This document shows, one piece after another, positions 14,351-37,912 of a stretch of 64,000 nucleotides of DNA. The stretch lies in contig JACPPP010000046.1 in the NCBI GenBank assembly GCA_016190935.1, positions 20,317 to 84,316 of the forward strand, written 5' to 3'. The translations under genes were made by a program, and so were the position numbers. The notes below the pieces were generated by a model, which was not told the DNA's origin, searched no databases, and saw only the letters and a program-made list of their open reading frames with translations. The stretch is from Armatimonadota bacterium (lineage in GTDB: Bacteria > Armatimonadota > UBA5829 > DTLH01). Within the stretch, counting starts at the first letter, position 1. Every line of letters begins with the position of its first letter.

Positions 14351-14466
14351 AAGTGTCTCCTTCCCGGAGCAGATGCTTGCGGTGTGGCCGTCACCCCACA
14401 CCGCTTGTCTACTCGCGGCCATTTGCGTTGCTACTCAACGCAAGCGTTTATTCATAAGAAAACCGC

Positions 14467-15464: not shown

Positions 15465-16484
15465 TCAGGTGAGTCTGCGAAGGCATGAGGCCAGTAGCGA
15501 GAGCAGTTCAGCCAGCCTCAGCACTGCCTTTTCTCGGATCACCAGCCGCTCGCCCACTCTGTAGGCCCTATCGCCGGTCTTGTCGATGTATTCCTGATCA
15601 ATGATCCCGTCCTTATGCGCCAGTAGATGTCGCTGCTGAAAGTATCTTACCAGTTCCTCAAGATCCGGCCTGGGGACGAGCTCGTCATAACCTTTACCAG
15701 CAGCCTTCCGCCACAGATCGCTCGATTCCGCAATACTCTGGAACACATTCTTGCGGCGCTTGAAATGGCTGGCAGTGGGAAGCAAGTCGAAAGTAGCCTC
15801 GGCGAATCGCTGAAAGGCCGCAACGAGTTTCGTGAAGGACTCCTCCAACATCAGCCGCTGCACGTTCTCAGCGGTATCGCGGTCCGGCATTGACTGTCGG
15901 ATATCTGGGATGTGCGCCACAGTCTTTCTGACGGCATCTACGGCCACCTCGAACATAGTCGCAGCGGAATTGTGGCCACAAGCTGGACAGAAGAAAGCTG
16001 CGCCAAAGGCCGAGTAGCGGCAGTGGCAGCCCTCGCATTCGAATCTCTGCCGCATCATCTCCGCAACTTCGTAAGGCACTACGACTTGCCTTGGGCCCGG
16101 TTTGTAGGACATAGACATTGTGATGAACCCACCGCGCGGCTGCGACCGGTTGAATGACTGTGTATCACGCCGCAGGGCCTCTCCGAGTTGGTCGCTGATG
16201 TAGCGGAAAGCGTAGTCCCGGATGTACTTGTTCTGCTGCTTGGTGTTGAAGGCGCTCGGGTCCGATTTGCGTCCGCAGATAGGACAGTAGGCTTCCTCTT
16301 CGGGCACCTTCTCCTTCCAGTCGTCCATCATCACCTTGAACTCACTCTTGCACCGTGAAGACGGGCACTTCCGGTCCAGATAGCCGTCATCGTCGAGTGG
16401 CATTGGGATGGGAGCGCTCACACTGTCACCCCATTGGCGGAGCAGACGCTGCGTCTGATCGAACATAGCTGCCTCCTGAGCCAT
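15465..16484 (-). CDS. Double zinc-ribbon protein with C-terminal alpha-helical domain carrying an HEPN-like Rx4H motif (QRHLLAH); function unknown
   Basis: Two CxxC...CxxC clusters (CPSSRC...CPICG; CEGCHC...CPACGH), then a helical C-terminal half with RHLLAH. Overlaps the upstream GHKL gene by about 40-59 nt, suggesting translational coupling. Confidence 0.35.
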   Translation of the reverse strand: MAQEAAMFDQTQRLLRQWGDSVSAPIPMPLDDDGYLDRKCPSSRCKSEFKVMMDDWKEKVPEEEAYCPICGRKSDPSAFNTKQQNKYIRDYAFRYISDQLGEALRRDTQSFNRSQPRGGFITMSMSYKPGPRQVVVPYEVAEMMRQRFECEGCHCRYSAFGAAFFCPACGHNSAATMFEVAVDAVRKTVAHIPDIRQSMPDRDTAENVQRLMLEESFTKLVAAFQRFAEATFDLLPTASHFKRRKNVFQSIAESSDLWRKAAGKGYDELVPRPDLEELVRYFQQRHLLAHKDGIIDQEYIDKTGDRAYRVGERLVIREKAVLRLAELLSLLASCLRRLT

Positions 16485-18459
16485 TCTTCTCGTCAGTAAT
16501 CAAGCACTCTGGTATATGGTCAGAGTGCCGTCTGCGAAGGTACTGCAGTGCCGTCTCGCAGTCCGGTTGGTACTGGAGATGGTCCTCGTAGAACTTGAGT
16601 CGTGCTTTGCAGTCCTCAATGACCTGGCCCCATGTCTTCACCCAGATTCTGGTCTTGCCATCGTCGCTCTCGTATAGCAGTCCCAGCGGCTTGTCCTTCT
16701 GCCGCGCCATCCGTTGCACCGGATCTGCGATCTCGTTCGAAAGCAACCAGAACACCCAGCGCGTGCCAGTATCTTTGAAGCGCTCGTCGGCTTCCACGGC
16801 AAATGCGTAGTCCTGAATCTGGGTCATGGCCTTCTGATCGATCTTCTTCCTCGGTGCCTTGAGCTCTATGACCAGGTGCTCCCGCTCCTCCACCCGAGGC
16901 TGAGGCACACGCCGCGAGAGCATTAGGTCCACTATCCCCTTGCTGCCGTCGGCACGCAGCACCGGTGCCGCGACCTCATCCTTACGCCCCAGCAGTTTCA
17001 GGTGCTTCCTCAGCACTTCATCGAGAGACTGGTCGTCAACGCTGAGGTGGAACTCCTCGCCGAAGATCCAAGTGTGGTCCGCAAGCACTCGGTGCAGCTG
17101 GCTTCGCTCCCGTAGAGCCTCTTTCGACGCGGGATCGAAGACGAGGATCTCAAGCCCCCGCAGGAAGTTCAGCCTGTCGGCGACCGTCTTTGCAGCGTTG
17201 ATAACGGCGGCAAGGCTGGTCTTCCTAAGCAGTTCGGCCAACTCGGCCACCTTCGCCTGGGGGAGGTCCAAGAGTTCTTGGACGACTTTCAACGTCTCCT
17301 CGGGCCTCTCTTCGAGGGTCTCCCGCAGCAACCGCAATTGGAACTTCCTGGTCTTCTGTTCGGAGCTGTCGAATTCCGGGAGGTAGTTGCTTATACTCGC
17401 AGCGCAGATATCAAAGACATCGCGTCTCGCCTGATCCAGTGGGCCGGTCGGTTCGTCTGGATAAGGATAGATGCCCTCCTGCTTCCACTGCTCGATGATA
17501 TCTGCTGACTTCTCGGCCTCTTTCGACCGCAGATAGCTTCGAAGGGTCTTCCTCGCGGATTCGACGAGAACCCGGATACGCGGGTCGAGCTCCAGAAGCT
17601 GCAGCGCATTCTCATCTACGCTGTCCTGTATAAGCTGGCTCTTCAGGTAGGCTGTGAAGTTGGCAGTCGAGGAGACGCCAGCGGGTATCTCATCCCTGGC
17701 GACGCCATTGGTATCGCAAAGCAGAATTCTCTTCTCCGTCTTGAACGCCCACTCGATAACGGTTAGCATCGGATTCTCCCCTACCAGTTCCGCCAGCTCC
17801 GGGATGGCAACCTCCAAGTTGCACTCGCTGACAATGGCGTGGAAATAGTCAACGGGACGGCCATCGTAGACTATGGAGACTCCAGGGTAGTTGCGCAGGT
17901 AGAGCGCGAAGGTCTCCGTTATCTCGGCGATCGCGTCCGGCTGTGTAAGCGACTCGAACTCCCTTCGCAGATTGGTAATCCGCACGGCAGTGCCCGTCTT
18001 ACGGTGGCCGTCGCGCTGAGGGTCCTCAAGCCTGAACTCCGCCAGCCTATCGAAGTTGCCATGGATGCGATAACTAGATAGCGCACCGTTGTCTGAGTAG
18101 TTCGTTTCCCATATCACGCTATGTCCCAGCGTGAACGCCCGGAACCTGCCTTTGCCCGCTTTGCCGTGCAGTATCCGCTTGTGCCGTCTCGACTTCCGGC
18201 CCGGCCGCTTCCATGAGCCGCCCAGATTGCCGAAGGCATCGTCCGCCTCAGCATAGGATATGCCGTGTCCGTCATCTGTGACAACTATCTCGTCAATAGC
18301 GCCCAAGGGAGAGCGGGCAAATTCCACAGTCACTAGCTCAGCATCGGCATCAAGCCCATTCCAGATCAGCTCAGCGATAGCGTGGATGGGTTTGGCACCC
18401 CCGACCACTCTCTGAAGGTAATCATCCTTGACCTGCACCTGTAACGTCTTCATCCACAA
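16426..18459 (-). CDS. MORC/paraMORC-like GHKL (Bergerat-fold) ATPase fused to a C-terminal PD-(D/E)xK restriction-endonuclease-like domain
   Basis: N-terminus IHAIAELIWNGLDADA...IVVTDDGHGISYAE matches HATPase_c (N-box and G1 DxGxG). C-terminus GIVDLMLSRR...EHLVIELKAPRKKID fits a D...ExK nuclease motif. Confidence 0.6.
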   Translation of the reverse strand: MWMKTLQVQVKDDYLQRVVGGAKPIHAIAELIWNGLDADAELVTVEFARSPLGAIDEIVVTDDGHGISYAEADDAFGNLGGSWKRPGRKSRRHKRILHGKAGKGRFRAFTLGHSVIWETNYSDNGALSSYRIHGNFDRLAEFRLEDPQRDGHRKTGTAVRITNLRREFESLTQPDAIAEITETFALYLRNYPGVSIVYDGRPVDYFHAIVSECNLEVAIPELAELVGENPMLTVIEWAFKTEKRILLCDTNGVARDEIPAGVSSTANFTAYLKSQLIQDSVDENALQLLELDPRIRVLVESARKTLRSYLRSKEAEKSADIIEQWKQEGIYPYPDEPTGPLDQARRDVFDICAASISNYLPEFDSSEQKTRKFQLRLLRETLEERPEETLKVVQELLDLPQAKVAELAELLRKTSLAAVINAAKTVADRLNFLRGLEILVFDPASKEALRERSQLHRVLADHTWIFGEEFHLSVDDQSLDEVLRKHLKLLGRKDEVAAPVLRADGSKGIVDLMLSRRVPQPRVEEREHLVIELKAPRKKIDQKAMTQIQDYAFAVEADERFKDTGTRWVFWLLSNEIADPVQRMARQKDKPLGLLYESDDGKTRIWVKTWGQVIEDCKARLKFYEDHLQYQPDCETALQYLRRRHSDHIPECLITDEKNGSGGSYVRSDAASAPPMG

Positions 18460-24000: not shown

Positions 24001-25077
24001 GAGGCAGTCCCTAACGAAATCTGAGGGCAAATAAGCAGTACCGCGGTCCTTGTAGCAGAAAACCATGCGTCTGAAGGCAGATACAACCGTTCTGGGGCCA
24101 TACGATAGATCGTTTCTCTCCGATGACGCCACCTGGCCGATTGCCTGCAGAGCTTCCTCCGAGATCGCCTGTGTTCCTATCTCTCCTAAGCTGAACTCCT
24201 CGACGTAGCGTTGCCACAATGTTCGGGCGAAGTCAGAACCGTAGATATCCCGCAGTCTGGGGAAGCAGTTTCTGCCCTGAAGTCTGGCAGGCAGCGCCGC
24301 AAAAGCAGCTTGCGCTTGAGCCAGGAAATTCTCGGGCATCGAGACGAAAACACCGTAGTCTCCTTGGCGACTCATAAGGCCGTTAGCTATGTCGAAGAGT
24401 ATCTGAGAGACTTTGGCCGTGCCAAGGGTCTTAGCCGCCACCTCCGGTTCGTCCAGCATTACGAGAAGACCGGAGTATCCAGCGCGGCCCAGCACTTCGG
24501 TGACCTCTGTGCAGTAGTCCAGAAAGCGTTCGGGGCTTGTCTGGATGCCGATGGTGCCGCCTGCGTTCACGGTGTCAGTGTAGGTCTTGAGGACATCGTC
24601 TACATTCCTGCCGCTGTGCCGAGCGGTCTCCTCCGCCAGTTCCTGCAAGGACTTCTCTCGATAAGACTCATACGACTTCTTGGCCGCAAGGGCAAGCTCG
24701 GCGTGTGTCTTGGCAAGTATGTGCTGGACCCACGCAGAAACTCCATCTACAAGGTCAGTCACTCTCTCCCATTCGAAAGGAGGTACGGCGAATACCTTGC
24801 GCTCCTCACACTGATCCCAGATGTGCACTTGGAAGCTTGTCTTTCCGTGCCCGTAGCCTCCTGCCACCCCGCCTATGAAGCCGCCCAGGTTGGATCCGCC
24901 GACCCACTTGAAGACGGCGTCTACGTATCTGGCAGTGTCTCCCAGTGAGATATGCGTGCGGGCGTGTGCCCGGTATATCTGTTCCACCTGCTCCGGATTG
25001 GAGGATAGAAACGACACTGGAAACGTGGCTATGATCGCTTCCTTGTTAAGAATCAGATCCAGATCCTCAAGTGGCAT
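21043..25077 (-). CDS. Giant P-loop ATPase (1344 aa), BrxC/PglY-like, with long C-terminal coiled-coil region
   Basis: N-terminal Walker A GGVAGGYGHGKTSFQVHIW and Walker B LLVMLDEPE. Large helical/coiled-coil C-terminus. Size and context (PglZ downstream) resemble BREX BrxC/PglY. Confidence 0.5.
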   Translation of the reverse strand: MPLEDLDLILNKEAIIATFPVSFLSSNPEQVEQIYRAHARTHISLGDTARYVDAVFKWVGGSNLGGFIGGVAGGYGHGKTSFQVHIWDQCEERKVFAVPPFEWERVTDLVDGVSAWVQHILAKTHAELALAAKKSYESYREKSLQELAEETARHSGRNVDDVLKTYTDTVNAGGTIGIQTSPERFLDYCTEVTEVLGRAGYSGLLVMLDEPEVAAKTLGTAKVSQILFDIANGLMSRQGDYGVFVSMPENFLAQAQAAFAALPARLQGRNCFPRLRDIYGSDFARTLWQRYVEEFSLGEIGTQAISEEALQAIGQVASSERNDLSYGPRTVVSAFRRMVFCYKDRGTAYLPSDFVRDCLDGEILVSDYPTRVREILDSPEAEGIDKALVTTLAAFPNGVTLDLADRLGIDTATKDFLIRRPNLVYKRGNLFGLVRLQRQAAGADQDELRDTLVDIASEFAPNPATFASARDAFIRRVIPRIFEPRQGQQLQGWEIPEKWNKVESDTRAAELVGAFMQTTRDFPKRTVAVAVGPYDADPGRVFTEVWAPDSPIDIVVHFRIRWSKDDPMPEQRIEVSPGDPEEGRPGVIRLILDFADNAIDHPGLEEVVGKVLLNPLGALYLISEKHKRTLSRDYEAQWSALQEQLLRELLTKLLGDPQVRQQASEQVGQHIPGDALALIGSVCRFILLSRYHGYSTLIRQPQWEQKVNQYVVALKNADIPLSCKRGREPWIESGDAVARVFNTSRMNLTGGAFAGFENLITIKPADRNDLQVDFKLHPLEEAIIEKITTDNPLPKKKFGGVECWCVPFEDVKSVMLCSGYSLDELLQIVEIGKSRGSFETAESGGKPVLFCRPLDLDQMKTQLSEKLTDLQAEIDEFKKLPEFPSSFDSAATKKAIDGLKDEAQYDSLQTRMNREFELMHSRLPNYFERLKGDIEGVQTSANNASQTLRTSPEVARIQNPPKGSSKWASDLNTYILVSLKAAVKDAAEELQRIQAAASKALIEHSVTKLGRPLEKVALLLHGWVDVGEMRQQMKDAQSKASAVMNYLRDYDQWLRLLARSDEVYREVIELKKETAHVGKASELIGKLDTIWADISGHLQTRNVTGLGSYKQYFQQLDTLDEERRKYIQELRSAFEEQKKVANELLQELDLGSDYRCREVFNSDDIQGCYARLYSEATKHVQEAIGVERQEADSQHQELLYTRDILGQIPADEADPMLAQLGAYSQSLDSILDRAKPGWFKELVSDGNEDKAAIKEALKGTRDAVRSIRLAIRKPLDDQDDQLTSDAKVMLDMISDGPGVNLKQIILRMMQGGRSSGDVLNISLDGLVELFRKSKIQITVERPKK

Positions 25078-25576
25078 TCGCTTTCCCTCTTTCTATAGCT
25101 TCGGTACGAAGTATCAGGCCCAAGTCGGTCCCGTCCGCAGTGGTCTTGAAAGACTGCAGCACTCCGTGCTTCGTGAGATTGTGTTGGAACTGCTTGACAT
25201 CGCGCTCTTCCAGAACGAGATCGGCTCTTGGCATTGGGTCCTGCGGCGGTTGTCGCATCAGCACTACGACCCGCTTCAATCCCAGCAACTGGGCAGCCGG
25301 TCTCATCAACCGAGAGTACTCTTCACCGTCCACCACGACACTCTCTGTGCCAGCAGGCACATCCCTGAGATTGGGAAGGTATGTATAACCCCGTTCCTTT
25401 GCGAGTAGCCTGGCGATGAATGACTTCCCGCTGCCTGAAGGTCCGCAAAGGCAGACGAAAGTCTCGGCTTGCCACCGCTCCACTATGTCGTTGAACGCGC
25501 GTTTCTGAGTAGCCGTCAGCCACTCGTATTCTGCTTTGAGCTTTATCTGATTCAGCCACTCGACATACAGGCTCAT
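25067..25576 (-). CDS. Small P-loop NTPase/kinase-like protein (169 aa), function unknown
   Basis: Walker A FVCLCGPSGSGKSFIARLL. Overlaps the start of the giant ATPase gene by 11 nt. Confidence 0.4.
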   Translation of the reverse strand: MSLYVEWLNQIKLKAEYEWLTATQKRAFNDIVERWQAETFVCLCGPSGSGKSFIARLLAKERGYTYLPNLRDVPAGTESVVVDGEEYSRLMRPAAQLLGLKRVVVLMRQPPQDPMPRADLVLEERDVKQFQHNLTKHGVLQSFKTTADGTDLGLILRTEAIERGKANAT

Positions 25577-25585
25577 TACGAAGCC

Positions 25586-26422
25586 TCACAAATCCTCAAT
25601 GGTAAATCCGCGGGTCAGGTTGACGGAGGGCCCTGCCAACGTGTCCGAGAGCTTTATACTCGGCGTGATGCTAGCTGCCAGGCGCAGTAGATTCGCGCAA
25701 CAGCCGCGGTCAAGGAAGAAGACACCGGCTACCTGATTCAGTAGTGAATCATCCATCACAACTGCATCCCCGTACCTGTACCTCCGGGAACGATAGACAT
25801 CATCCAATGCCAACGCCGCCAGTTCGTATCGATCAACTATCCGCGGTTGAACGTGTCTGCCACGGGGATCGAATGCAGGGGGAGTGAGACAACCGAGCCA
25901 ACTCGAGACGCAGGATGCCGCCTTGTGGTTGAAGCGTCCACCTGCCTTTCCCATGGAGTCGATATGCGGAAAGGCCGAAACCATCTCAGCCTGGATTAGC
26001 GCCGCCAGTTCCACCGCTGGGATCATCTTCCCGTTGGCCCACATAAGTTCGCAGCAACGCCGGTAGCTCCAGAGATACTTGCGATCGGTCGGTGAACCGC
26101 CGTAGCCTGAGAAATGCAGGTAATGCAACAAGTCCCTGGCAAATGCTGCGTCAGAGGCCTGCACGGTTTGGACCCTCAGTCCTCGGGAGGTGAGGCAGTA
26201 TTTCAGACCTCCGTCCCTCATTTGCTCTGCCAGTCCGAGGTCGAACAGCCTGCGGGGGGTATACGTGTGATCTCTCTGCATCGGCTCGCCGTACTGGCTA
26301 TCAAGCGTATCTGCTATCTCGTCGGGTGACAAACAGACGTCTGCTGCCAACACTCGAAGCACGCGGGTAACTTCGTCTGGCGGAGCACTATCTATATAGA
26401 AATGAGTATCCTCTTCCATTCT
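25586..26422 (-). CDS. Hypothetical protein (about 279 aa), no recognisable domain
   Basis: ORF in operon context. Start taken at internal Met (MRMEEDTHFY) because the N-terminal extension overlaps the next gene. Confidence 0.3.
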   Translation of the reverse strand, partial: RMEEDTHFYIDSAPPDEVTRVLRVLAADVCLSPDEIADTLDSQYGEPMQRDHTYTPRRLFDLGLAEQMRDGGLKYCLTSRGLRVQTVQASDAAFARDLLHYLHFSGYGGSPTDRKYLWSYRRCCELMWANGKMIPAVELAALIQAEMVSAFPHIDSMGKAGGRFNHKAASCVSSWLGCLTPPAFDPRGRHVQPRIVDRYELAALALDDVYRSRRYRYGDAVVMDDSLLNQVAGVFFLDRGCCANLLRLAASITPSIKLSDTLAGPSVNLTRGFTIEDL

Positions 26423-26426
26423 CATG

Positions 26427-26966
26427 TCACCGCACCCCAAGAATGTCCTGCACATCGGCCGCCCCGAAAACGGATAGCATCGGTGCGAGGCTCTCCCTCT
26501 CACGGATCTCGAAGAACTCGGACAGGATGAACTGAGATAGGTCGCGGCGGATATCGGAGTACATCATCAGGGAGTAGGAATCGGGGTCAAGGAAGACGTA
26601 ATCGATGTTCTCCAGTATTCCCGCGCTTCCTCCGCCGGAGGTGTCTAGCTCCGAACAGGCGCGCTCTTTACCTCTCAGAGGCTTGTGGTACCAAAAGCCG
26701 GAGGTGCGCAAGTGGAAGAATGGCTCCGACGGGTGACACCAGTCGCCTTCCTGCTGCACCAGAGCAAACAGTCGGCTGAACGTGTTCTTGAGCCGTTCAT
26801 CGAAACGGATCCTGTTTTCGGATATCTCCCGCCTGTCCAGCAACTCGATGACAGCGAGCAGCAACAACGGCTTATGGGGCTTCATTCGGCCCTTGTGGAC
26901 ACCACGCCGCATGCCAAGTATCTCGGCTCTCAGACGTGCAACCTTCTCCTCCAACGCAGTGTCCAA
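26427..26966 (-). CDS. Hypothetical protein (179 aa) with conserved-looking HKPLLLLAVIELLD...FxxLF...W..P..PFFHLRTSGFWYH segment; function unknown
   Basis: ORF in operon context immediately downstream of the PAPS-reductase-like gene. Motif pattern recalls DNA-modification-associated small domains but could not be assigned. Confidence 0.3.
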   Translation of the reverse strand: MDTALEEKVARLRAEILGMRRGVHKGRMKPHKPLLLLAVIELLDRREISENRIRFDERLKNTFSRLFALVQQEGDWCHPSEPFFHLRTSGFWYHKPLRGKERACSELDTSGGGSAGILENIDYVFLDPDSYSLMMYSDIRRDLSQFILSEFFEIRERESLAPMLSVFGAADVQDILGVR

Positions 26967-26984: not shown

Positions 26985-27779
26985 TCACAGCGTGCAGACT
27001 AGACAAGGGGACGACTCCTCTTGGTCTTGCAGCAGATCGCATAGACGGGAACCCGTGCCGACACTGCGGGCTGTTCGCGCTCCGTATTCGGCCTTGATCG
27101 CAGCGACCCGCTCCGGTCGCGATAGTTCCTCAAGACTCTCATTGTCGCACCACGTGAACCGCCGACCCGTGGCTTGGTCCGTCTTCTCGTAGCCGCTCGC
27201 CAGTCTGAACAGTTCTGGGTGATGCTCCAAGAGCCCGACCCACTCAATCTTCTGTTGGAAGAAACAAAAGTAGCAGCCGGATCTCGACCGCCATTTTCGG
27301 TACCCGGGCATGCCGATTCCCGTTTCCTCCAATATCCGCTCAATATCGTGGTAGCACAATCCATCCTCTTTGAAAGGGTATACGGCTTTGATATTGGGCT
27401 TCTTCGAAATGTAACCTTCACGGTCTTCGTCAGCCCTTATGCCTACATAGCTGATAACAGGTGCTTCGCCAACATACTTCTCAAAAGGTTTCAGTTTAAG
27501 GTACTTGGTGCACCAACGCATGTTAGATGCTGGCAGATAGCCGCCGAACACGTTGAGCCAGTGATCAAAGCCGCGACCATCGTGCTTCAGCACCGTGATG
27601 GACTTACCAAGGAAGGCTTCTATGCGTGCGAGGTATTCATAAGTTTCGGACAGCTCCTTCTCGGTATCGCAGAACACGTACTCCATCTCTGGGACCTTGT
27701 CCCGCATGTAGATCGCCAGTGCGGCGCTGTCCTTGCCGCCGGAGATGGAAAGTATGTGTCGCAGCCTTCCTTCAGACAT
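26985..27779 (-). CDS. PAPS-reductase-family PP-loop ATP pyrophosphatase (SspD/DndC/BrxP-like)
   Basis: PP-loop ILSISGGKDSAALAIY (SGGxDS) near the N-terminus, about 264 aa, cysteine-rich C-terminus. Confidence 0.75.
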   Translation of the reverse strand: MSEGRLRHILSISGGKDSAALAIYMRDKVPEMEYVFCDTEKELSETYEYLARIEAFLGKSITVLKHDGRGFDHWLNVFGGYLPASNMRWCTKYLKLKPFEKYVGEAPVISYVGIRADEDREGYISKKPNIKAVYPFKEDGLCYHDIERILEETGIGMPGYRKWRSRSGCYFCFFQQKIEWVGLLEHHPELFRLASGYEKTDQATGRRFTWCDNESLEELSRPERVAAIKAEYGARTARSVGTGSRLCDLLQDQEESSPCLVCTL

Positions 27780-27782
27780 CCG

Positions 27783-30700
27783 TTACTTCTCCTCCTCGAT
27801 ACATTCGCTGCCATCAGCTGTAGCCAGACGCTTGGTAGCCTCGGTTAGAGCAGCGAGAGCAATCCGTCGATCCACGTTTACGACTGCCCCCTGAGCGATC
27901 AAATCAACAAGACTCGCGATCTCATCCCGATCACTATCCGAGAAACGCACCAAGTGGCGAATAGCCTCCCCTTGACGACCGCTGATCGTCAACAGATAGC
28001 CGTCCTCGCCGTCCTCCAACGCCAAACCCAGCGACTGAGCTGCCTCGATTCCGCGCACCTGAGCTGCGATCTGTGGGACAAGCCGACCGAAGCTATCGGC
28101 GTCGGCCTTGCTCCACCGGCTTGGCGGTTGGCCGACGATGCCCGCTCCGAGCGACTCCAGGTACTCCGTATCTCCAAGCTGAGCTTCGCGAGCACGCACT
28201 GTCAACGCCCGTAACTTGGAGTCCGTAGCCAGATCATATAGCTTCGAGGCCCGCTTCTCCACCTTGCGTCTCCAGTCGTCTCCGGCGGGAACATCGAATA
28301 TGTCGAGGATTCCGCGGAGCACACGCTCCAATAGCTGCGGGTAGCAGACGATCAGAGCATCGAACGCCTTGTTCAGGCGGTCGAAGAACGTCCCGACATT
28401 GCTGTCCTCCAAGGACTCCTTGTCCGATGGCTGGAACGGGTGGCAGCCCAGCGCAACAGGCAGGTCAACGAAGATGAGCCGTTCGGGGCTCTTCGCTCTT
28501 AGGATCGCCTCTCGCACCGCTATGGCTTCAGGCGGCAAATCTCTTGTCATCTCGACGTATCTGGGCAAGGATCCCATTCTCTGATACAGCGATCTCGCTA
28601 CCGGCAGCAATCCACTCTCGACGCGAAATCCCCGCGCGAACCGCTCGATGACCTGCTCGCGCTCTCCATCGATCCCGAAACGCAAGACAGAGAAATTCTC
28701 AGGTCGGCGCATCAGTCGTTCCATTACTGGCGGCGTCAGGTCGGGGACAAACACCCCGTCTTCATACATGGCCATCGTGCCGCAGTAGCTGATCATGCAG
28801 GCGCACAACAGCACCGGCACAAAACCATCGGCGACGCCGTAAGGAGGGCCGCTGAGTTCTCGGAAGAGTTGGCTCACGGAGATGGGCTTCAGCGATTCCG
28901 AGTAAGCTCGTTCAAGCAGGCAATCCCAGGCTTTCTGCAGCCCGGTATCTTCATCATTCGGTCGGCCGAACTCCCACTGTTCCTTGTCGTTCAGCCGGTG
29001 CACGCCGCTCCTCAGCAAGAGCGACTCGTATATGCTCCTCTCGGGGGGATAGCCATTGAAACCTAACCCGGGCTGGTCTTCCACCGTCAGCATCGCCTTG
29101 ACGAGATTACCTCGCGCGGCGGCCGCTGCCGACGAGAGTCTCCGGCGGTTGATTAGCTCATTCTGGACGACTGGCGCGAACTCGAAGGTGGCGTCGCAGG
29201 CATCGGAGAGCAGGGACGCGAGGTCTCTGGTGGATGCCGTCTTCCTTTGCTCCCCTCGCCAGAGACATAAAGTCTCGCCGGTACCAGGAGTGAATATCCG
29301 GTTCCATTCGGTTCTGAATGCAATCTCGGCTTCAAGTCTCCGCTCGTTGAGTTCCTGCCGAGCTACCCTATCGCCGGCGAGAGCCGGGGTGTTATGCTTG
29401 ACCCACTCCAGCGCTGCGACATCACGTGCGGCCTCCAGAAGCTCGTCGTTCTCTGTCCCGACGAGAACAAGGACAGAAGGGTCCACCAGACCGCTGAGGG
29501 CCGATATCACGGATTCCCTTTGCTCGTAATCCTGCACGAGACAGTGAATCAACCGTCCGTCAACGTCCTCTCTCGGCTCAAGAGCCGTGGAGAGATCCTC
29601 CTCTGAACTGGGTGTGACTGCAAACGATCTCAGCATGCCGGTGCGGAACGAATGTCTCCTGGCAACAACGGGCGGCGACGGACACAGGTCTCTAGCCACA
29701 GAAACTGCAACAGACTGAGATGGTAGCGCTTGGTACGCCGCCGCCAGCCGTTCCCCGACGTCTACGTCGCTGCCCTCCCACAATCGAAAAGCGTTGCGGA
29801 ACCTCCGGAATACGATTAGCCGCTTCTCTTCGAGCAGATCAAGGGCGGCCTGAATCCGCTCCGGCGAGCAAATCGGTGAAGACAAGGCAAGCATCAGAGC
29901 TTCGCGGGAAGCATGGAAACGTGATGTTTCCCCAACCAGGCTCAGCAGACCGACGCTCTTGAGGACGTCGACTTCCTCAAGCGTGGCGTCACCGAGCCTC
30001 GCAATCGCCTCTTCGACTTCCGCCCATGCGCGTGCTACATGAGGCGCTGGGGCTCCGCCAACAAGCGTGTGGCACGCATAGTCGTAGAGTTGAGGCAGGC
30101 GCATGAAAGGCGGAGCATCAGCATCAAATTCAGAATCTCGCACCCAATCGGTCAAGGAAAATGGCTCGTTCGCCGACAGAAATGAGAACAACGATCTTTC
30201 GCTCTGCCCGTATTTCCTGAACAAACCTGGAAGCAGCACAAGCGAAGTGGGGTGGAGCGGATAGCACGATACGCACAGATCCTCGAAGTCGCTTTCCGAT
30301 CCACGTGGCGCAAGTCCGGCACAGGCTTGAGCAGACTGCCGTATCGCCTGATTCGCGCACACGGCTTCGCTATCAGTGCTGTTCAATGCTCTTGCGACGA
30401 GCTGGAACGCATCAAGCCCATCCAGGACGCAGGGAACGTCAAAGAACCGTTGCTGGACGCGCTCCCACTCCCGCTGATGCCGTCGGCCCAAACGGGAGGC
30501 ATACTGGGAGAACTGCTGATGCAGGATGGTAACGAACCAAAGAGGGTAGTCGTGGCTGCGTGACGCAGCTTCGGCCATTTCCTGGAGGATCTGTACATCG
30601 CTGTCTTCGGAGCGCAGTGCCGCGTATTCCAATAGCTTTCCGAGTTCGTCGACGATCACAACTACGCCTAACGCCTGCTCTCCTTCAGCAGCAATTCTGG

Positions 30701-31247
30701 CGAGATCCTCGAATATCCTGACGACGGCCTTGGTGCCTGGATTCCTCGACTGGATTTCCTTTCGATGCTTCGTGAGCAGTGCGCGAAGTAGCGTCTGCCG
30801 CCCAGACAGTTCAAGCGAGCGTTTCAGGTTGCGCATGAGTGATACAGCGATGTTCTCCCTGGTACCTGTTGCCAGGATCGTTATGTAGCCCTGTTCCGGC
30901 GGCGGCAGGAGCTGATTGGCGACGCCATCGATGTCACCGCGCGCTCTGTCCTTGAAGCCGTTGTTCTGTGCTTTGTCGAGCAGTCTGGCGAAGTACAGCG
31001 CCAACGCTGATTTGCCAGAGCCGTACGGACCTGAAATGCACTGAGCGCGATATGAAGGGTCGGACGTTCCGCGCGCAAGGAGAGACAGGGCGGACAACGA
31101 GCCTCGAGTTAAGAGATAACCCTCGGCAGCATCGTCCGTATAGAAATCGCGCTCCAGATGCACTGATCTCAGGAACCGTGGGCTCAGGGAGATCAACTCG
31201 GACATAGCGGCCTTACCGGCTGGCATAGTAAGCCTCCAGAAAAGCAA
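27783..31247 (-). CDS. DUF499-type large P-loop ATPase (SspC/BrxC-like)
   Basis: Walker A CISGPYGSGKSALALYFARLL, Walker B VVVIVDELGKLLEYAA, followed by an ILHQQF motif, as in BrxC/SspC family ATPases. The true start may be the internal Met about 31205. Confidence 0.65.
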   Translation of the reverse strand: MLFWRLTMPAGKAAMSELISLSPRFLRSVHLERDFYTDDAAEGYLLTRGSLSALSLLARGTSDPSYRAQCISGPYGSGKSALALYFARLLDKAQNNGFKDRARGDIDGVANQLLPPPEQGYITILATGTRENIAVSLMRNLKRSLELSGRQTLLRALLTKHRKEIQSRNPGTKAVVRIFEDLARIAAEGEQALGVVVIVDELGKLLEYAALRSEDSDVQILQEMAEAASRSHDYPLWFVTILHQQFSQYASRLGRRHQREWERVQQRFFDVPCVLDGLDAFQLVARALNSTDSEAVCANQAIRQSAQACAGLAPRGSESDFEDLCVSCYPLHPTSLVLLPGLFRKYGQSERSLFSFLSANEPFSLTDWVRDSEFDADAPPFMRLPQLYDYACHTLVGGAPAPHVARAWAEVEEAIARLGDATLEEVDVLKSVGLLSLVGETSRFHASREALMLALSSPICSPERIQAALDLLEEKRLIVFRRFRNAFRLWEGSDVDVGERLAAAYQALPSQSVAVSVARDLCPSPPVVARRHSFRTGMLRSFAVTPSSEEDLSTALEPREDVDGRLIHCLVQDYEQRESVISALSGLVDPSVLVLVGTENDELLEAARDVAALEWVKHNTPALAGDRVARQELNERRLEAEIAFRTEWNRIFTPGTGETLCLWRGEQRKTASTRDLASLLSDACDATFEFAPVVQNELINRRRLSSAAAAARGNLVKAMLTVEDQPGLGFNGYPPERSIYESLLLRSGVHRLNDKEQWEFGRPNDEDTGLQKAWDCLLERAYSESLKPISVSQLFRELSGPPYGVADGFVPVLLCACMISYCGTMAMYEDGVFVPDLTPPVMERLMRRPENFSVLRFGIDGEREQVIERFARGFRVESGLLPVARSLYQRMGSLPRYVEMTRDLPPEAIAVREAILRAKSPERLIFVDLPVALGCHPFQPSDKESLEDSNVGTFFDRLNKAFDALIVCYPQLLERVLRGILDIFDVPAGDDWRRKVEKRASKLYDLATDSKLRALTVRAREAQLGDTEYLESLGAGIVGQPPSRWSKADADSFGRLVPQIAAQVRGIEAAQSLGLALEDGEDGYLLTISGRQGEAIRHLVRFSDSDRDEIASLVDLIAQGAVVNVDRRIALAALTEATKRLATADGSECIEEEK

Positions 31248-32154
31248 TCGAAGCCAAGGGTTGCTCGTCCCGTTTCACGACGCGCCTTACCTGCGTAGTA
31301 TCCTCAAAAACCATTGCTCCACCACTTGTATCAGAGACGCTGTCCAGGTAAGAAAGAACGGAATCCTCATCCAGCCTGAAGACCTGCGCCGGACTTCCTT
31401 CGGAACCTATGATCTGACGCAACTCCAGAGTCTGTCGCTCACAGCACTTCATATTCCAGAACTCAGACAGCGCATAGGTGAACACTCCTGAGGGTAGGGT
31501 CGGTTTCGGGCCAGTCCTAAGTCGCAGCCGATCTCCATCCGGCTCTTGAACCAGCAGATCCAGTCCAGTGAGCGGACACTCGATGGGGTCCTCACCATTC
31601 GTGACGTCATCTCTGCGAGACAAGTAAGTGTGTATAAGGCAGTCAACGTCGCGCTTCACGGTCGACTCAGACACGTCTTGCCATCCGATGGTCTGGATGA
31701 ACCTAGTCAGAGCGTCCAGCATGGCGGGTCTGGTGAATGCATACTCGTGGAACCTATTGAACGTCCAGTACCAGGTAGCCGCGCGCGTTCCTGCGCTGGT
31801 GAGATTCCAGTGAAGCAGCCAAAGAGTTCCCTCGTCCTCCAAGTAAGGATCCCAGCCAGCATCTTTCAGGAGGCGGTTGCCCAGGTCTGTAGGACGCAGA
31901 CGCCTCGCCCGTGTCCCGGGTTCCTCCTCGGCCACTCTGGTCGCGAGGCACCAGTGGCGGATAGACCGAACCATATTTTTGCCCACCCCAAGAGTAACAA
32001 TAGCGTCCTCACGCTGAAAGGACTCGCGGTCCCGGCTCAGGCTATCTACGCCCTTCTTCAGCCAGGCGTGCCGAAACGCGAAAGTCTCATGTCCGGCAAA
32101 GGACTTCGCAAAAGGCACCTGCACTTCGTTTTCCGCCAGTTGAACTGATACCAT
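31213..32154 (-). CDS. DUF4007-like protein (SspB-like candidate)
   Basis: N-terminal FAGHETFAFRHAWLKKG segment as recalled for DUF4007 family proteins that partner PAPS-reductase-family genes. Position is directly upstream of the DUF499 ATPase and PAPS-reductase genes. Confidence 0.4.
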   Translation of the reverse strand: MVSVQLAENEVQVPFAKSFAGHETFAFRHAWLKKGVDSLSRDRESFQREDAIVTLGVGKNMVRSIRHWCLATRVAEEEPGTRARRLRPTDLGNRLLKDAGWDPYLEDEGTLWLLHWNLTSAGTRAATWYWTFNRFHEYAFTRPAMLDALTRFIQTIGWQDVSESTVKRDVDCLIHTYLSRRDDVTNGEDPIECPLTGLDLLVQEPDGDRLRLRTGPKPTLPSGVFTYALSEFWNMKCCERQTLELRQIIGSEGSPAQVFRLDEDSVLSYLDSVSDTSGGAMVFEDTTQVRRVVKRDEQPLASIAFLEAYYASR

Positions 32155-33018: not shown

Positions 33019-34614
33019 TTAAGCGGTCACGCCCGACGCCGCGATGTCCCCAAGTCGAGCCCTCAGCCTCTTAAGGTAATCCACGTTCCGAAAGGTTATA
33101 ATAAGAGTCGGGCTGGGGAGCCAATCCGACTTCGCTATAACCTGCTTCTCCCTCTGGAGAACGCGGATGAGTTCCGTCGGGATGGCCTTAACGATCTTCC
33201 TATCCTGCACCATGAACCTATCCCAGAATAGGCCCAAGTAGTGGTGTTTGAGCTCGGGTGGAGCTGCCCTGTAAGCTCGGTAGATGCTCCTCGACAATCT
33301 GAGCACATCTTGCACAACATCCAGATCCGACTCCTTAACCTCATCGAGTTCATCCATCTGGGTGCGAAGACCGGCAAGAGCATCATTGAACTTTGCTCTC
33401 AGTCGCACGAACTCGTCGTCGCCAATGACGCCGTCGAGCAGTTTCTCTTCAGCTCTGTCTCTCTTCGCTTCCAAAGCGTTGATCTGATTCTGCAGGATCT
33501 GCTTTTCCGAGGCGATGCTCTGCCTTTGATCGAGGTACATGACCCGGAGTCGCTTGAGTATCAGCGTTACGAACCCGTCACTGAATTGTATACTCTTGAA
33601 TCGCTCCTCCACGGCCCGCTCGAGTCGTGGGACCTCGATGTTCTGGCCGCGGTTGCTATGGGCCCGCATAGCGGCACAGTGATAATACTGCTTCTGCTTC
33701 GCGGGATGCACCTCTGCCGTGTACCTCTGTCCGCAGATGTTGCAGAAAACAAATCCGCGCAACAGGAAATCGTGCCGCCGCCGTCGGCACGCGTAGCGGT
33801 TGTTGCGATCCATGATTTCGAGGACGCGTTTATGTTCTTCAGGGGTAATCATTGCCTTATGCCTTCCTGGCCGCTCCTGACCGTTCCATCGCATTATCCC
33901 GGCGTAGAACGGATTGCGGAACGTGCCGTACATCACACTATGTGGGACTTTCCTGCCGGTCTTCGATCGCAGACCCCGTTGATAGAGGATGTCGGCCACA
34001 TCATCAACGGAGTGCTTACCAGTAAGGTACAGTTCGAACCCTTGCCGCAGCAGCTCATACCGGTCCGAGTCTTTGGCAATGACGGCCACGGGCCTTCCCC
34101 CGCCGGTCGCCGCGCCTTTCTTCACATTCAGATAACCGAAAGGAGCAGGCGCTGGCCACCAGCCTTGTTCGAACTTCTCCCGCATGCCTCTCTTCGTCTT
34201 CCGGCTATTGATGTCCGACTGGAACTGGTTTACGCTCGCGAGAATTGTGTCGATCAGGTTCCCCTCGGGGCTGTCGTCCAGCATTGGCTGAGCAACTGAG
34301 ATCAGATTGACCTCGGCTTTTTGCAGTATCGCCCTGATTGTTAGATGGTCCTTCGTGTTTCTGGCCAGTCTGTCAGTCTCCTGGACTACGACCGCCTTGA
34401 TGTCTCCGTCCTTCGTACAACGCGACAGTAGCTCTGTAAGAGCGGGCCTTTCGAGCGTCGTTCCGCTCTTCCCTTCGTCGCGGAAGACATCAGCTACGCG
34501 AAGACCACTGCGGGCGGCGAAGTCCCGGCAGAGCTTTTCCTGGGCGTCAAGGGAGTATCCTTTGTCTGCCTGCTCCTCGGTGGAGACGCGGCAGTATATG
34601 AAGCAGTTAGCCAT
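33019..34614 (-). CDS. Large serine recombinase (resolvase/invertase catalytic domain + recombinase domain + zinc ribbon)
   Basis: Start at Met 34614 (MANCFIYCRVSTEEQADKGYSLDAQE...) with catalytic YCRVST. Downstream recombinase domain and CxxC...CxxC zinc ribbon. The ORF-track N-terminal extension to 34884 is judged non-coding. Confidence 0.8.
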   Translation of the reverse strand: MANCFIYCRVSTEEQADKGYSLDAQEKLCRDFAARSGLRVADVFRDEGKSGTTLERPALTELLSRCTKDGDIKAVVVQETDRLARNTKDHLTIRAILQKAEVNLISVAQPMLDDSPEGNLIDTILASVNQFQSDINSRKTKRGMREKFEQGWWPAPAPFGYLNVKKGAATGGGRPVAVIAKDSDRYELLRQGFELYLTGKHSVDDVADILYQRGLRSKTGRKVPHSVMYGTFRNPFYAGIMRWNGQERPGRHKAMITPEEHKRVLEIMDRNNRYACRRRRHDFLLRGFVFCNICGQRYTAEVHPAKQKQYYHCAAMRAHSNRGQNIEVPRLERAVEERFKSIQFSDGFVTLILKRLRVMYLDQRQSIASEKQILQNQINALEAKRDRAEEKLLDGVIGDDEFVRLRAKFNDALAGLRTQMDELDEVKESDLDVVQDVLRLSRSIYRAYRAAPPELKHHYLGLFWDRFMVQDRKIVKAIPTELIRVLQREKQVIAKSDWLPSPTLIITFRNVDYLKRLRARLGDIAASGVTA

Positions 34615-34682
34615 AGCAGTGGTTCCTTCCCGCAATTCACAGACTTCCGCCCGAATGCGAGGCTGATCATCTGGAGGCAAGG

Positions 34683-35042
34683 CTAAGCGGGGTCGTGGCG
34701 AGGATTGCTGTGGCGCGGCGAAAGCAGAATGGTCAGTTGTATCCCTTCCGTATCCAGGATCGTCTTCAGCGCGGCGTATTCGGAGAAGCTCAGGATGCCG
34801 GTTGTCGACACCACGACCATATCGATGCTTGGATTGCTCGCCAGAGCGCGGCGCAGGTTCCTGAGCTTGGCATCGTTGGCGCACTTGACAGGTTCGGCTG
34901 CATCGCTAACCTCATCGAGGATGTTCCAGCTGCGCTTCTTTGCATAATCCCTCAACGGGGCAAGATGATCCGCGATCGTTTCCGACGGTGATTGGCGCGC
35001 TTCCTTACGCAGAGGAATCTGGGCGTACAAGAGGCAGTTCAT
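34683..35042 (-). CDS. Degenerate resolvase-like N-terminal domain protein (catalytic Ser replaced: YAQIP instead of YARVS)
   Basis: MNCLLYAQIPLRKEARQ...DMVVVSTTGILSFSEYAALKTILDTEGIQLTIL aligns to the resolvase catalytic domain pattern but lacks the nucleophilic serine. Confidence 0.45.
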   Translation of the reverse strand: MNCLLYAQIPLRKEARQSPSETIADHLAPLRDYAKKRSWNILDEVSDAAEPVKCANDAKLRNLRRALASNPSIDMVVVSTTGILSFSEYAALKTILDTEGIQLTILLSPRHSNPRHDPA

Positions 35043-35299
35043 AGGGGCCTCCGTCTGGTTAAGCGTCCTCTCCGGGCTCAAAGAGGACGCGAGGCTGATA
35101 GCAGGGGACGAGCCTAGTGAGTACATGATGTATATCATTGGTCGGAGTCATTGTCAATAGCGGTGCAGTTACCCCCTTGGGCCCCTGGGCAAGCAAGTTG
35201 ATTTCGTTTCCGGCGGTGTGCTACTATCGATAGGCTTGGGAAGCTGGCGAAGGACGATCTGACTTCGTGATAGAGGGGAGTCGTCGGGAGGAACCAACA

Positions 35300-37912
35300 A
35301 TGCTGTACCGCTGCTTGTCAGTCTGCTTCATACTACTATTCACGGCCGTTCCGCCCGCCCCCGCGGGACAGTGGTACTCTGGTATCATTCACGTTCACAC
35401 GACGTTTTCCGACGGATCGGACAACGTTCCCCAGCGTGTGGAACTGGCAAAGAAGCTCGGGTACAAGTTCGTCATCATCACTGACCACTACGAGCAAATC
35501 GGCTCGCCTGAAAAGGTTTCTCTCAGGTATGTTGCCGCCAATCCGCGCGGAGTTGACGTCGGCTTTCCGGACTATGTGCGCAATTGCGGCGAGCAGACCC
35601 GCGACGGCTCATTTGTAGCCATTCCTGGAGCGGAGATTCAGACGATTTGGCACGCTGAACCTGACACGACTGATGCGTCTCACACAGTTGCCCTCGGAAG
35701 CGTCGGCACATCTGGTGATGACAAGCTCATCAAGATGTTTTCGGAGGCGGATCGCCAGGAGGATGTGATCAAGTGGGTCGACAAGCACCATCTGCTTTCC
35801 GTGGCTGCTCATCCGACGCTGATCTCGACGAAATCAGCGACCATCACGCCCTGGGAGTGGCAGCGCAACCGCTACGATCTGCGCAAGCCGGATAGGTACG
35901 TGGGTATCAGGGGGGTGGAATTCTTCAACTCTCAGACCGATCAGCAGAACCACGATGTGCTGGCCTGGTACCTGTCTCTACTCAGAGAGGAGATGAAGAA
36001 ACCCAAGGATAAGCGCAAACCCATATTCGTAACGGCTGGCTGCGACAGCCACGGCTGGAAAGACCCCAACGACCTCGAACGCTGGCTGCGTGGCACATAC
36101 GTGTGGGCTAACGGCCTCAGTACCAGTGGGATTCTTGATGCCCTCGCAAGTGGACGTTCTTACGCATCGACAGGCGGCGTTTACCTCAAAGAAATGAATT
36201 ATCTCCCCGGGGAGCCGGTCCAGAATGTTGATACGCCAACCTTTCGCTTCACGGTAGCCTTTCCAAGCCGTTCCACATCATTTCTCCTCACCTTATCAAA
36301 AAGCTACGGCATCCCTCTGAAGCTGGTGGCGGACTTGATTGGTGAGAGTAACGTGACTACCACCATAATGACGTACCGGGACGGCGAATTAGTGCCGGAG
36401 TCCCGCGCAACGTTCAAGGGTATGCCGACCAGCGTCAAGTACACCTGGACGGACAAGACGGCGGCTCCCGGCGAGCACTGGTACGTGCTGTGGGTGGATG
36501 GAAGGCTGGTCACATCCCCAATCAGGCTAGAGACTACAGGGCGAGCCGAAGACATGCAGAGCTTTCGCCAGGGAACTATGCTCTTTGTGCGAGGTGGAAA
36601 CATCTGGCGGGCTGATCTCACTGCTGGCAAAGCTACCTTAGTCGCGAGAAACGGAAGGCATCCGGCTTGGAACCCTGACAACAGAATTGTGCTGTTCACA
36701 CGGTTGCTGTCGGGCGCATGGGACAAGAGCCTAAGCGTGCGCATAGATTCCTGGGGCCTGTTCAGCCATGATCTCGCGGAGGGCAAGACGGCCAGGATTG
36801 GCAAGCTATCCTCCGAACAGCCGATAACAGCCGCTCGATCAGCGAGAGACGGAGAACTGATCTACCAGTATGCCAATTTCAAAGGCCAGCCGGAACTGTA
36901 TCGATTCCCAGGGATTGCGGGCCGCGATGTCAGGTTCCAGTCGGCTCTCTCTACTGCACAGTACCATTGGGGTGCCTCAATTTCAGGCGACGGGAAATGG
37001 CTGGCTTACCAAGGAGGAGGGGTTGACAGCCGCTATAATACGATAGCCATCTCTGATCTGGCGGAGCTTCAGGTTCGAATTGCCAAGCCGCTCAATCCTA
37101 CGGTCATTTACGGAGCAGGCGGGACGGCGTGGTCTCCGGATAACAGGTGGATCGCAATCGCCGACTCGGATGGCAATCTCTTGAAGATGAGCTTGGAGGG
37201 CTCAGTCACGACACTGGTTCATGGCAATCGGTCGTTCCGAGTGCTACGCCCTACGATCTCGCCCGACGGTCGAGCGGTTGCGTTTGAAGCCCAAGGGCAG
37301 ATATGGGTCTGCGCGGTGTCAGGTGGAGACGCGCAAGTGCTCGTTGCACATGCTACAGAGCCATGCTGGCAACATCAGGCGGTCGCAGTGAGAAGGAAAC
37401 CACAGCGGCAGCACGCCCCGATCACAAAAACCCTTCCGCGCACGGCCCAGTTCCCGGACAGTACGTACCTTGGTACAGTTAGAGTACGAGAGACGTGGAC
37501 GGCTGTGAGGCACCGCTTAGGCGATCATTACAGGGTTCTGCGCGGCACTGGCGACGATATCACGGTAAAGGTTGCATATTCGGACCCGCGGCAAGATGCC
37601 GCTTTGATAATCGGCATGGACGGGACAAAGCTCTCGGACAGCAGCGTGGTGTCTCTCATCAAGCTTGAGAGGACGCAGGGCCGCCGCTTTCCAAAGGCAC
37701 GGGTCGCCTTTGCTGCAGCGGGCAACGCACGCGGTGTGAGGCTGGGCGATTCCCTATCAGATATCCACGCGGCTCACCCGGGCGAACCCCGTTCCGAATG
37801 GCATGGGGACTACCAATATGCGGTCCAATCCCCACATGACTGGCCGTGTTACGTGCATTACCGGGTCAGCGGCGGGAAGGTGACCGCGATGAGTAGCGGC
37901 TATACCCCATGA
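35300..37912 (+). CDS. Secreted PHP-domain phosphoesterase fused to TolB-like beta-propeller (PD40/WD40-like repeats)
   Basis: Signal peptide MLYRCLSVCFILLFTAVPPAPAG. PHP motif IIHVHTTFSDGSD...ITDH. C-terminal repeats of WSPDNRWIAIADSDG / ISPDGRAVAFEAQGQIW type. RBS gggagg before ATG 35300. Confidence 0.65.
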   Translation: MLYRCLSVCFILLFTAVPPAPAGQWYSGIIHVHTTFSDGSDNVPQRVELAKKLGYKFVIITDHYEQIGSPEKVSLRYVAANPRGVDVGFPDYVRNCGEQTRDGSFVAIPGAEIQTIWHAEPDTTDASHTVALGSVGTSGDDKLIKMFSEADRQEDVIKWVDKHHLLSVAAHPTLISTKSATITPWEWQRNRYDLRKPDRYVGIRGVEFFNSQTDQQNHDVLAWYLSLLREEMKKPKDKRKPIFVTAGCDSHGWKDPNDLERWLRGTYVWANGLSTSGILDALASGRSYASTGGVYLKEMNYLPGEPVQNVDTPTFRFTVAFPSRSTSFLLTLSKSYGIPLKLVADLIGESNVTTTIMTYRDGELVPESRATFKGMPTSVKYTWTDKTAAPGEHWYVLWVDGRLVTSPIRLETTGRAEDMQSFRQGTMLFVRGGNIWRADLTAGKATLVARNGRHPAWNPDNRIVLFTRLLSGAWDKSLSVRIDSWGLFSHDLAEGKTARIGKLSSEQPITAARSARDGELIYQYANFKGQPELYRFPGIAGRDVRFQSALSTAQYHWGASISGDGKWLAYQGGGVDSRYNTIAISDLAELQVRIAKPLNPTVIYGAGGTAWSPDNRWIAIADSDGNLLKMSLEGSVTTLVHGNRSFRVLRPTISPDGRAVAFEAQGQIWVCAVSGGDAQVLVAHATEPCWQHQAVAVRRKPQRQHAPITKTLPRTAQFPDSTYLGTVRVRETWTAVRHRLGDHYRVLRGTGDDITVKVAYSDPRQDAALIIGMDGTKLSDSSVVSLIKLERTQGRRFPKARVAFAAAGNARGVRLGDSLSDIHAAHPGEPRSEWHGDYQYAVQSPHDWPCYVHYRVSGGKVTAMSSGYTP

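Follow-up and report, generated by a model that had tools for sequence, protein, structure and literature searches.

Here, we report that three small genes on the minus strand of a 64,000-nucleotide stretch of DNA from an Armatimonadota bacterium (contig JACPPP010000046.1; hereafter, the window) are of two origins. The genes, ORF1, ORF2, and ORF3, lie between sspBCD, a predicted module for writing phosphorothioate (PT) marks on DNA, and genes resembling those of the bacteriophage exclusion system (BREX). ORF1 is an optional add-on, predicted to encode a sulfur-binding domain (SBD) without a nuclease, and is separate from a cassette of five genes that makes up the restriction half and in which ORF2 and ORF3 are core subunits alongside a BrxC-like ATPase, a PglZ-like protein, and HerA. 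We consider it fairly probable that the locus is a PT-based, BREX-related restriction-modification system in which SspBCD marks, the five-gene cassette restricts, and ORF1 reads PT via ORF2.

The genes form one packed, co-directional string in the order sspB-sspC-sspD-ORF1-ORF2-ORF3-BrxC-like (1344 amino acids [aa])-PglZ-like (375 aa)-HerA (399 aa) (Table 1). The nine are predicted to constitute one operon, with ORF1 to ORF3 translationally coupled inside it. The three small frames (179, 279, and 169 aa) had been singled out in an earlier reading of the window (the original prediction), and their positions, strand, and named motifs were confirmed. They are real genes beyond chance, with 12 clusters of homologues for ORF1, 119 for ORF2, and 81 for ORF3, and with gene order kept. 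Proteins identical to ORF1 and ORF2 are already recorded from an Armatimonadetes metagenome-assembled genome (MAG; database search). The alternative raised at the time, that homologues might be absent from related loci or belong to housekeeping families, did not hold, as homologues are present and none is housekeeping.

ORF1 starts at a TTG codon, 6 nt after a GAGGAGG ribosome-binding site, and contains HKPLLLLAVIELLD and PFFHLRTSGFWYH. Residues 24 to 156 match the crystallised SBDHga (PDB 8H0L; E = 5.1e-23), and the N-terminal half of NCBIfam NF045808 ("phosphorothioated DNA-binding restriction endonuclease"; PT-DNA_restrict) is matched at 3e-9; homology to a solved SBD thus places ORF1, at the level of sequence, in the SBD family. 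The sulfur cavity of SBDHga consists of H25, K26, L75, P76, and H79 (PMC10602919), with H31, K32, E81, P82, and H85 as the ORF1 equivalents (HMMER alignment); four of the five are kept, the Leu/Tyr position being Glu, and E81 in place of SBDHga L75 is seen in all Ssp-linked SBDs. Domain searches detected no HNH or other nuclease in ORF1, and the protein ends about 20 residues past the SBD; we therefore infer a reader domain that has no catalytic partner on the same chain and would bind PT-DNA. PF26340 (DNA-SBD_ScoMcrA) in the local Pfam did not match ORF1 even at E ≤ 1; the homologues, all small proteins, bear precomputed PF26340 annotation. ORF1 shares whole-domain homology and the HK...P..H cavity residues with the SBDs of type IV PT-dependent enzymes (ScoMcrA, SprMcrA, and Hga; 8H0L) but lacks their HNH or PD-(D/E)XK domain and is encoded inside a PT-writing operon, not in a PT-lacking host. 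Surveys of SBDs list HNH, SRA, kinase, and PD-(D/E)XK partners and no stand-alone form in ssp operons (PMC10602919), and a literature search for work connecting SBDs with SspBCD found nothing relevant. The original prediction had expected a sensing or linking component at this junction, which is upheld for ORF1 (an SBD without nuclease) and not for ORF2 and ORF3, which are core effector subunits rather than linkers.

Related loci were gathered with an ORF2 profile (10 genome and 71 metagenome loci, plus contigs encoding individual homologues), and their six-frame ORFs were searched with the window proteins. The order sspBCD-[SBD]-ORF2-ORF3-1344-375-HerA was found in about 80 loci, essentially every locus long enough to show it, in MAGs of Dehalococcoidales, Thermodesulfobacteriota, Pirellulales, Chloroflexia, Anaerolineae, and others. 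Co-occurrence with genes of the PAPS (3'-phosphoadenosine-5'-phosphosulfate) reductase family, which the original prediction had named as a check, was seen, with a PAPS-reductase/SspD gene upstream of ORF2 in 49 of 54 informative loci (distinct ORF2 sequences with at least 900 nt upstream). Of the other five, L015 and L066 carry an SspA homologue upstream, accompanied in L015 by GIY-like and DndB-like genes. In a variant of the modification module in Anaerolineae (L014, 572-9884; L015; L066), the five-gene core is preceded by genes for a BrxP-like PAPS reductase bearing 4Fe-4S domains, for SspB, SspA, and an SspC-like protein, and for a DndB-like and a small GIY-YIG-like protein. A GIY-like and DndB-like pair also follows HerA in L009, and in L071 only the GIY-like gene was detected behind HerA.

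The cassette is not confined to SspBCD. On a Haloplanus plasmid, the five-gene string stands beside queC/queE/queD, a DpdA-like tRNA-guanine transglycosylase (TGT), and a GNAT protein, and SspBCD is absent. The Haloplanus proteins matched homologues of ORF2 (1e-10) and ORF3 (9e-8) from the related loci with phmmer, and homology scores for the 1344-aa (P1344), 375-aa (P375), and 399-aa (P399) proteins were 5e-45, 9e-33, and 5e-123; hhalign aligned ORF2 with the 282-aa Haloplanus protein at 96.7%. In L098 (8471-17555), a distant ORF2 relative and the full five-gene core follow a 473-aa radical-SAM (S-adenosylmethionine)-like gene, with neither SspBCD nor TGT; the effector may here be coupled to a DNA mark of a third kind. 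L090 shows the first three cassette genes after unrelated genes and before the contig end. Because ORF2 and ORF3 accompany the BrxC-like, PglZ-like, and HerA genes also in loci that lack SspBCD, we place them in the core of the restriction half, and the earlier view of the three small proteins as one wedged unit has to be given up. Decayed copies were also seen: in L082/L083 (9974-10366), sspBCD is followed by a truncated ORF2 and the effector genes are absent, ORF2 in L064 (9383-10588) lacks its N-terminal ~84 residues, and P0104, with the same truncated ORF2 segment as L064, carries a phage-integrase domain (PF00589).

The cassette corresponds to "BREX-Related Capture" (BRC), a system that Rakesh and Krishnan (NAR 2026) delineated by computation in 45 taxa, haloarchaea among them (PMC12839542). 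BRC comprises a PglZ that lacks its customary extra domains, a BrxC-like DUF6079 ATPase, a DUF4007-like BrxA homologue, HerA/FtsK, and an enzymatically active STAND NTPase called a BrxB homologue, with GNAT and TGT optional (PMC12839542). We assign the window cassette to BRC on sequence homology and synteny, as it has the same five core genes in the same order and direct homology to the Haloplanus BRC locus: P399 supplies the HerA/FtsK universally retained in BRC, P1344 and P375 are homologous to the Haloplanus BrxC-like ATPase and reduced PglZ, and ORF2 and ORF3 (Walker A/B residues conserved) take the places of the DUF4007-like BrxA homologue and the active STAND NTPase. In the published main text, GNAT/TGT (7-deazaguanine or acyl marks) is presented as a modification route that BRC alone uses, and PT marks are treated as peculiar to type 4 BREX (PMC12839542). 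TGT and GNAT, a subset feature of BRC, were found neither in the window nor in the Ssp-linked loci; instead, the partner is SspBCD in the window and in about 50 distinct related loci, some with an extra SBD reader. A BRC-SspBCD pairing is not mentioned in that main text (PMC12839542). The ORF2 and ORF3 families have thus already been described, in silico only, and the PT-coupled form of BRC and the nuclease-less SBD are the new elements.

ORF2 is 279 aa long from an ATG located 1 nt past the ORF1 stop. The mechanical call of 305 aa begins at an upstream GTG overlapping ORF1; homologues begin at M..EDTHFYID, and the identical NCBI protein has 277 aa. The family is small, with only 207 matches at E ≤ 1e-3 among 1.84 billion representative proteins, and its clusters (at 90% identity) are nearly all of 275 to 300 aa. 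Sequence searches of ORF2 against Pfam, PADLOC, NCBIfam, and PDB gave no match, as did the SspB/DUF4007 sequence models; hhalign against the window SspB returned a probability of 2%. In three dimensions, ORF2 has the SspB fold (helix-turn-helix [HTH] plus winged HTH modules) in a triple-HTH protein. ORF2 is, then, a very divergent DNA-binding protein of the SspB/DUF4007/BrxA fold, linked by fold alone and not by sequence; kinship of BrxA and SspB is already documented (PMC9240713). A catalytic role for the invariant residues D6, H8, and D12 was considered and is not supported, as they are not conserved in the archaeal homologue.

ORF3 is a 169-aa protein with a GPSGSGKS Walker A motif, and its stop codon overlaps the ATG of the 1344-aa gene. 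All members of its family are 165 to 173 aa, bar a few shorter fragments. In a 53-sequence alignment, G45, G48, G50, and K51 (Walker A), R89, and E159 are invariant, and D83 (Walker B position), R92, and R163 are nearly so; a 36-sequence alignment gave the same picture. Searches against Pfam, PADLOC, NCBIfam, and PDB sequences returned only Walker A-level matches, and a Foldseek search of the structure against PDB returned generic AAA+ matches, none specific to BrxB. The supplementary alignment of the published BRC NTPase shows ORF3-family motifs, e.g., "LNLIKTRRDPAWLTVSQQ...GATVGKTF" from an Anaerolineales bacterium (PMC12839542), and ORF3 is accordingly predicted to be an AAA+ core matching the BRC "STAND NTPase." The BrxB of type 1 BREX lacks Walker motifs, whereas ORF3 keeps them, and the comparison with BrxA and BrxB gave no Pfam DUF1819, DUF1788, or DUF4007 match. 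None of the three proteins had been assignable to a family by eye; they are now placed as an SBD, an SspB/BrxA fold, and an AAA+ core.

An SBD occurs in 9 of the 54 informative loci; where it is missing, sspD and ORF2 are spaced by -3 to about 100 nt. Stand-alone SBDs (150 to 185 aa) lie directly after sspD and ahead of three different effector modules, namely BRC (the window, L016, L027, L080, and L085), SspFGH (L093/L094, PADLOC confirmed), and a DUF4007-153 aa-1401 aa-PglZ-BrxL module (L095/L096). Compared along its full length, the SspFGH-linked SBD shows 45% identity with ORF1, and it shares the Glu-Pro cavity motif. Fusions also occur: P0031 (421 aa) and P0204 (416 aa) each have an SBD joined to the N terminus of ORF2. 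In L071 (9002-9964) and L075 (165-1130), the slot between sspD and ORF2 is filled by an ORF of 321 to 322 aa (stop to stop) with SBD and HNH_2 domains, predicted to be a classical PT-dependent type IV nuclease architecture. Such a nuclease inside a PT-writing operon looks self-toxic.

The mechanism that we infer as a whole would run as follows. SspBCD, with a cysteine desulfurase encoded elsewhere, would write PT on host DNA. The BRC proteins would assemble as in BREX, with ORF2 positioning the effector complex on DNA and ORF3, in the BrxB position and with intact Walker motifs, linking the BrxC-like ATPase to PglZ as a nucleotide-dependent switch or bridge; HerA would pump DNA, and PglZ would be the phosphodiesterase effector on unmarked DNA. 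ORF1 would bind PT sites and relay "self" status via ORF2, the route suggested by the two SBD-ORF2 fusions, so that marked DNA would be spared. Several observations weigh against this reading. The cavity position of L75/Y164 is Glu (E81) in ORF1 and the DNA backbone contacts R70 and N72 of SBDHga are not conserved (W76 and H78 in ORF1), so that PT binding is a prediction. Sequence similarity of ORF2 to SspB/DUF4007 is not detectable with models or hhalign, its invariant N-terminal D6/H8/D12 motif is missing from the archaeal homologue, ORF3 has no structural match specific to BrxB, and the roles proposed for both proteins are taken by analogy from BrxA and BrxB. The SBD is found in so few loci that it is not a general self-recognition device, and the SBD-HNH proteins in the ORF1 slot of L071 and L075 are more in keeping with an added type IV nuclease than with a self-sensor.

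A broader form of this idea, which we hold tentatively, is that nuclease-less SBDs serve Ssp-type PT systems as a portable "self-mark reader," informing whichever effector follows (BRC via the BrxA-like subunit, SspFGH, or PglZ-BrxL), and that BRC is a mark-agnostic effector plugged into PT, 7-deazaguanine, and possibly radical-SAM-made marks.

DndB provides feedback control of PT density in Dnd systems. ORF1 could likewise serve the modification module, either by shielding PT sites (e.g., against oxidation or against PT-dependent type IV nucleases met in new hosts) or by feedback on PT density, and we regard this as unlikely though worth weighing. ORF1-type SBDs always lie directly after sspD, whichever of BRC, SspFGH, or DUF4007-PglZ-BrxL follows, and with three unrelated effector modules the only common partner is therefore SspBCD; the position of the locus beside a large serine recombinase in a defence island suggests mobility. 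However, two independent fusions tie the SBD to the effector protein ORF2 and not to an Ssp protein, and most SspBCD-BRC loci have no SBD. That ORF1 is instead a remnant or derivative of a type IV SBD-HNH enzyme, an independent add-on that either has no Ssp/BRC role or recruits a nuclease in trans against foreign PT-DNA, appears less probable still. It is favoured by the SBD-HNH_2 proteins in exactly the ORF1 slot of L071 and L075 and by the attachment of 94% of SBDs to HNH in published surveys (PMC10602919), but intact stand-alone SBDs are conserved between BRC- and SspFGH-linked loci, with an invariant GDWCHPSEPFFHLR-type core, which argues for purifying selection on a nuclease-free protein, and ORF1 is translationally coupled within the operon. 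Least plausible, and in our estimate very improbable, is that ORF2 (a second SspB-type nickase) and ORF3 (an ATPase) both serve DNA modification rather than restriction: ORF2 has the fold of SspB, a reported nickase (PMC9240713), and the authors of the NAR 2026 study propose, speculatively, a modification role for the BRC NTPase, with the STAND NTPase replacing DpdB (PMC12839542), but SspBCD already has its own SspB and ATPase, and a role tied to one modification chemistry is unlikely because ORF2 and ORF3 stay with the BrxC-like, PglZ, and HerA genes beside PT, TGT, radical-SAM-like, or no adjacent modification genes.

Further results concern the genes flanking the three small ORFs. No cysteine desulfurase adjoins sspBCD within the window, and sspD had no blastn match in E. 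coli genomes. P1344 matched a Haloplanus "BREX system ATP-binding domain-containing protein" (tblastn, 1e-30 over 91%) and did not match the Pfam DUF6079 model; neither P1344 nor P375 found anything among PDB sequences. P375 has the invariant motifs VVDGLSYYD, GLDxxxHxxxD, DHGILWR, and WGVHGGxS, typical of PglZ and the alkaline-phosphatase superfamily. It did not match PglZ models directly (Pfam and PADLOC); its Haloplanus orthologue (1.8e-50, full sequence) matches PADLOC PglZ at 3.6e-6. P399 is predicted to be HerA (Pfam DUF87, 9.5e-14; PADLOC HerA, 1e-25, and mad8, 6e-22; PDB HerA chains, 1.6e-12).

Table 1. Genes of the predicted Ssp-BRC operon, with positions counted from the first nucleotide of the window
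Gene and predicted product	Position	Strand	Basis
sspB (DUF4007), PT modification module	31213..32154	-	Pfam DUF4007 2.6e-84; PADLOC SspB 4e-93
sspC, BrxC-related ATPase, PT modification module	27783..31247	-	PADLOC SspC 5.9e-299
sspD, PAPS-reductase-family PT modification enzyme	26985..27779	-	PADLOC SspD 4.2e-110; Pfam PAPS_reduct 1.3e-11
ORF1, stand-alone SBD, predicted PT-DNA reader, without nuclease domain	26427..26966	-	PDB 8h0l and NCBIfam matches
ORF2, SspB/DUF4007-fold (BrxA-like) multi-HTH DNA-binding subunit, gene 1 of BRC-type cassette	25586..26425	-	
ORF3, minimal AAA+ core NTPase (clamp-loader/DnaA/ORC-Cdc6 type)	25067..25576	-	BRC "active STAND NTPase, BrxB homologue"
P1344, BrxC-like ATPase of effector cassette, 1344 aa	21043..25077	-	Weak Pfam BrxC_BrxD; Haloplanus homology; synteny
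P375, short PglZ-like (alkaline-phosphatase-type) putative effector, 375 aa	19919..21046	-	Motifs; Haloplanus orthologue
P399, HerA/FtsK-type translocase ATPase, 399 aa	18710..19909	-	Pfam DUF87, PADLOC HerA/mad8, PDB HerA

In placing an SspBCD PT-writing module ahead of a restriction module, the locus resembles SspABCD-SspE and SspABCD-SspFGH, and HerA/FtsK-type ATPase domains are common to SspH and P399. SspFGH was rejected as the identity of the downstream genes, since the window proteins match no PADLOC SspF, SspG, or SspH model at E ≤ 0.01; positive controls (Agrobacterium and L093) scored e-125 or better, and the genuine SspFGH beside SspABCD on an Agrobacterium plasmid (614, 513, and 1686 aa) scored e-219 or better. 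The window effector proteins likewise did not match the PADLOC SspE model. A nearer parallel is the Thermomicrobium roseum plasmid NC_011961 (L089; 90215-105778), which carries SspBCD, a second DUF4007 protein, proteins of 166 and 1401 aa, PglZ, BrxL, and a cysteine desulfurase; on sequence, we take it for an Ssp/BREX type 4 hybrid that parallels the window architecture and is analogous, not orthologous. Orthology was rejected as ORF3 and P1344 have no significant similarity to their counterparts (BLASTP), nor does the ORF2 profile to the T. roseum DUF4007 paralogue (hhalign). BREX type 4 (BrxP-BrxC-PglZ-BrxL) and T. roseum-type loci thus share with the window PT marking and a BrxA-like, small-protein, BrxC-like, PglZ logic in analogous order, but the window has HerA where BrxL stands, and its PglZ is half-size (375 aa). 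No window protein matched the BrxL model; the T. roseum controls matched BrxL and PglZ models.

The locus lies in a defence island (window positions 1-50000) that includes a KAP NTPase (6594-8681), a SAVED-domain protein (10001-11506), an AAA ATPase (13370-14422), a PHP and beta-propeller protein (35267-37912), an McrB-like AAA_5 protein (40275-41783), and an 862-aa PHP and SMC/AAA_23 protein (46429-49017). Directly downstream of HerA (15465-18459, minus strand) are a 677-aa HATPase_c_3 protein and then an unannotatable 339-aa protein; the former has an SduA/DUF4263-like nuclease region and is BbrUII/HgiDII-like (NCBIfam, 1.9e-13). These two genes could form a restriction pair of their own or supply the system with an auxiliary nuclease. 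Immediately upstream of sspB is a large serine recombinase (XisF/Ccr-like; 33019-34884, minus strand), which suggests that the whole Ssp-BRC cassette is mobile; the edge of L098 likewise holds a large serine recombinase.

Because PT is present on only a minority of consensus sites, telling self from non-self is a standing problem for PT restriction modules, and sensing by DndFGH and SspFGH has been called "poorly understood" (PMC12914056). The predicted PT-binding domain, whose gene adjoins sspD and which in some proteins is joined to the effector DNA-binding subunit, is a directly testable candidate for the sensor; if the portable reader is real, it would show for the first time, in concrete molecular terms, how a PT restriction module can sense PT marks that are sparse. 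BRC, a rare system, gains a large PT-coupled branch, and the presence of the same effector cassette beside different DNA-marking modules informs the modular evolution of BREX-like immunity.

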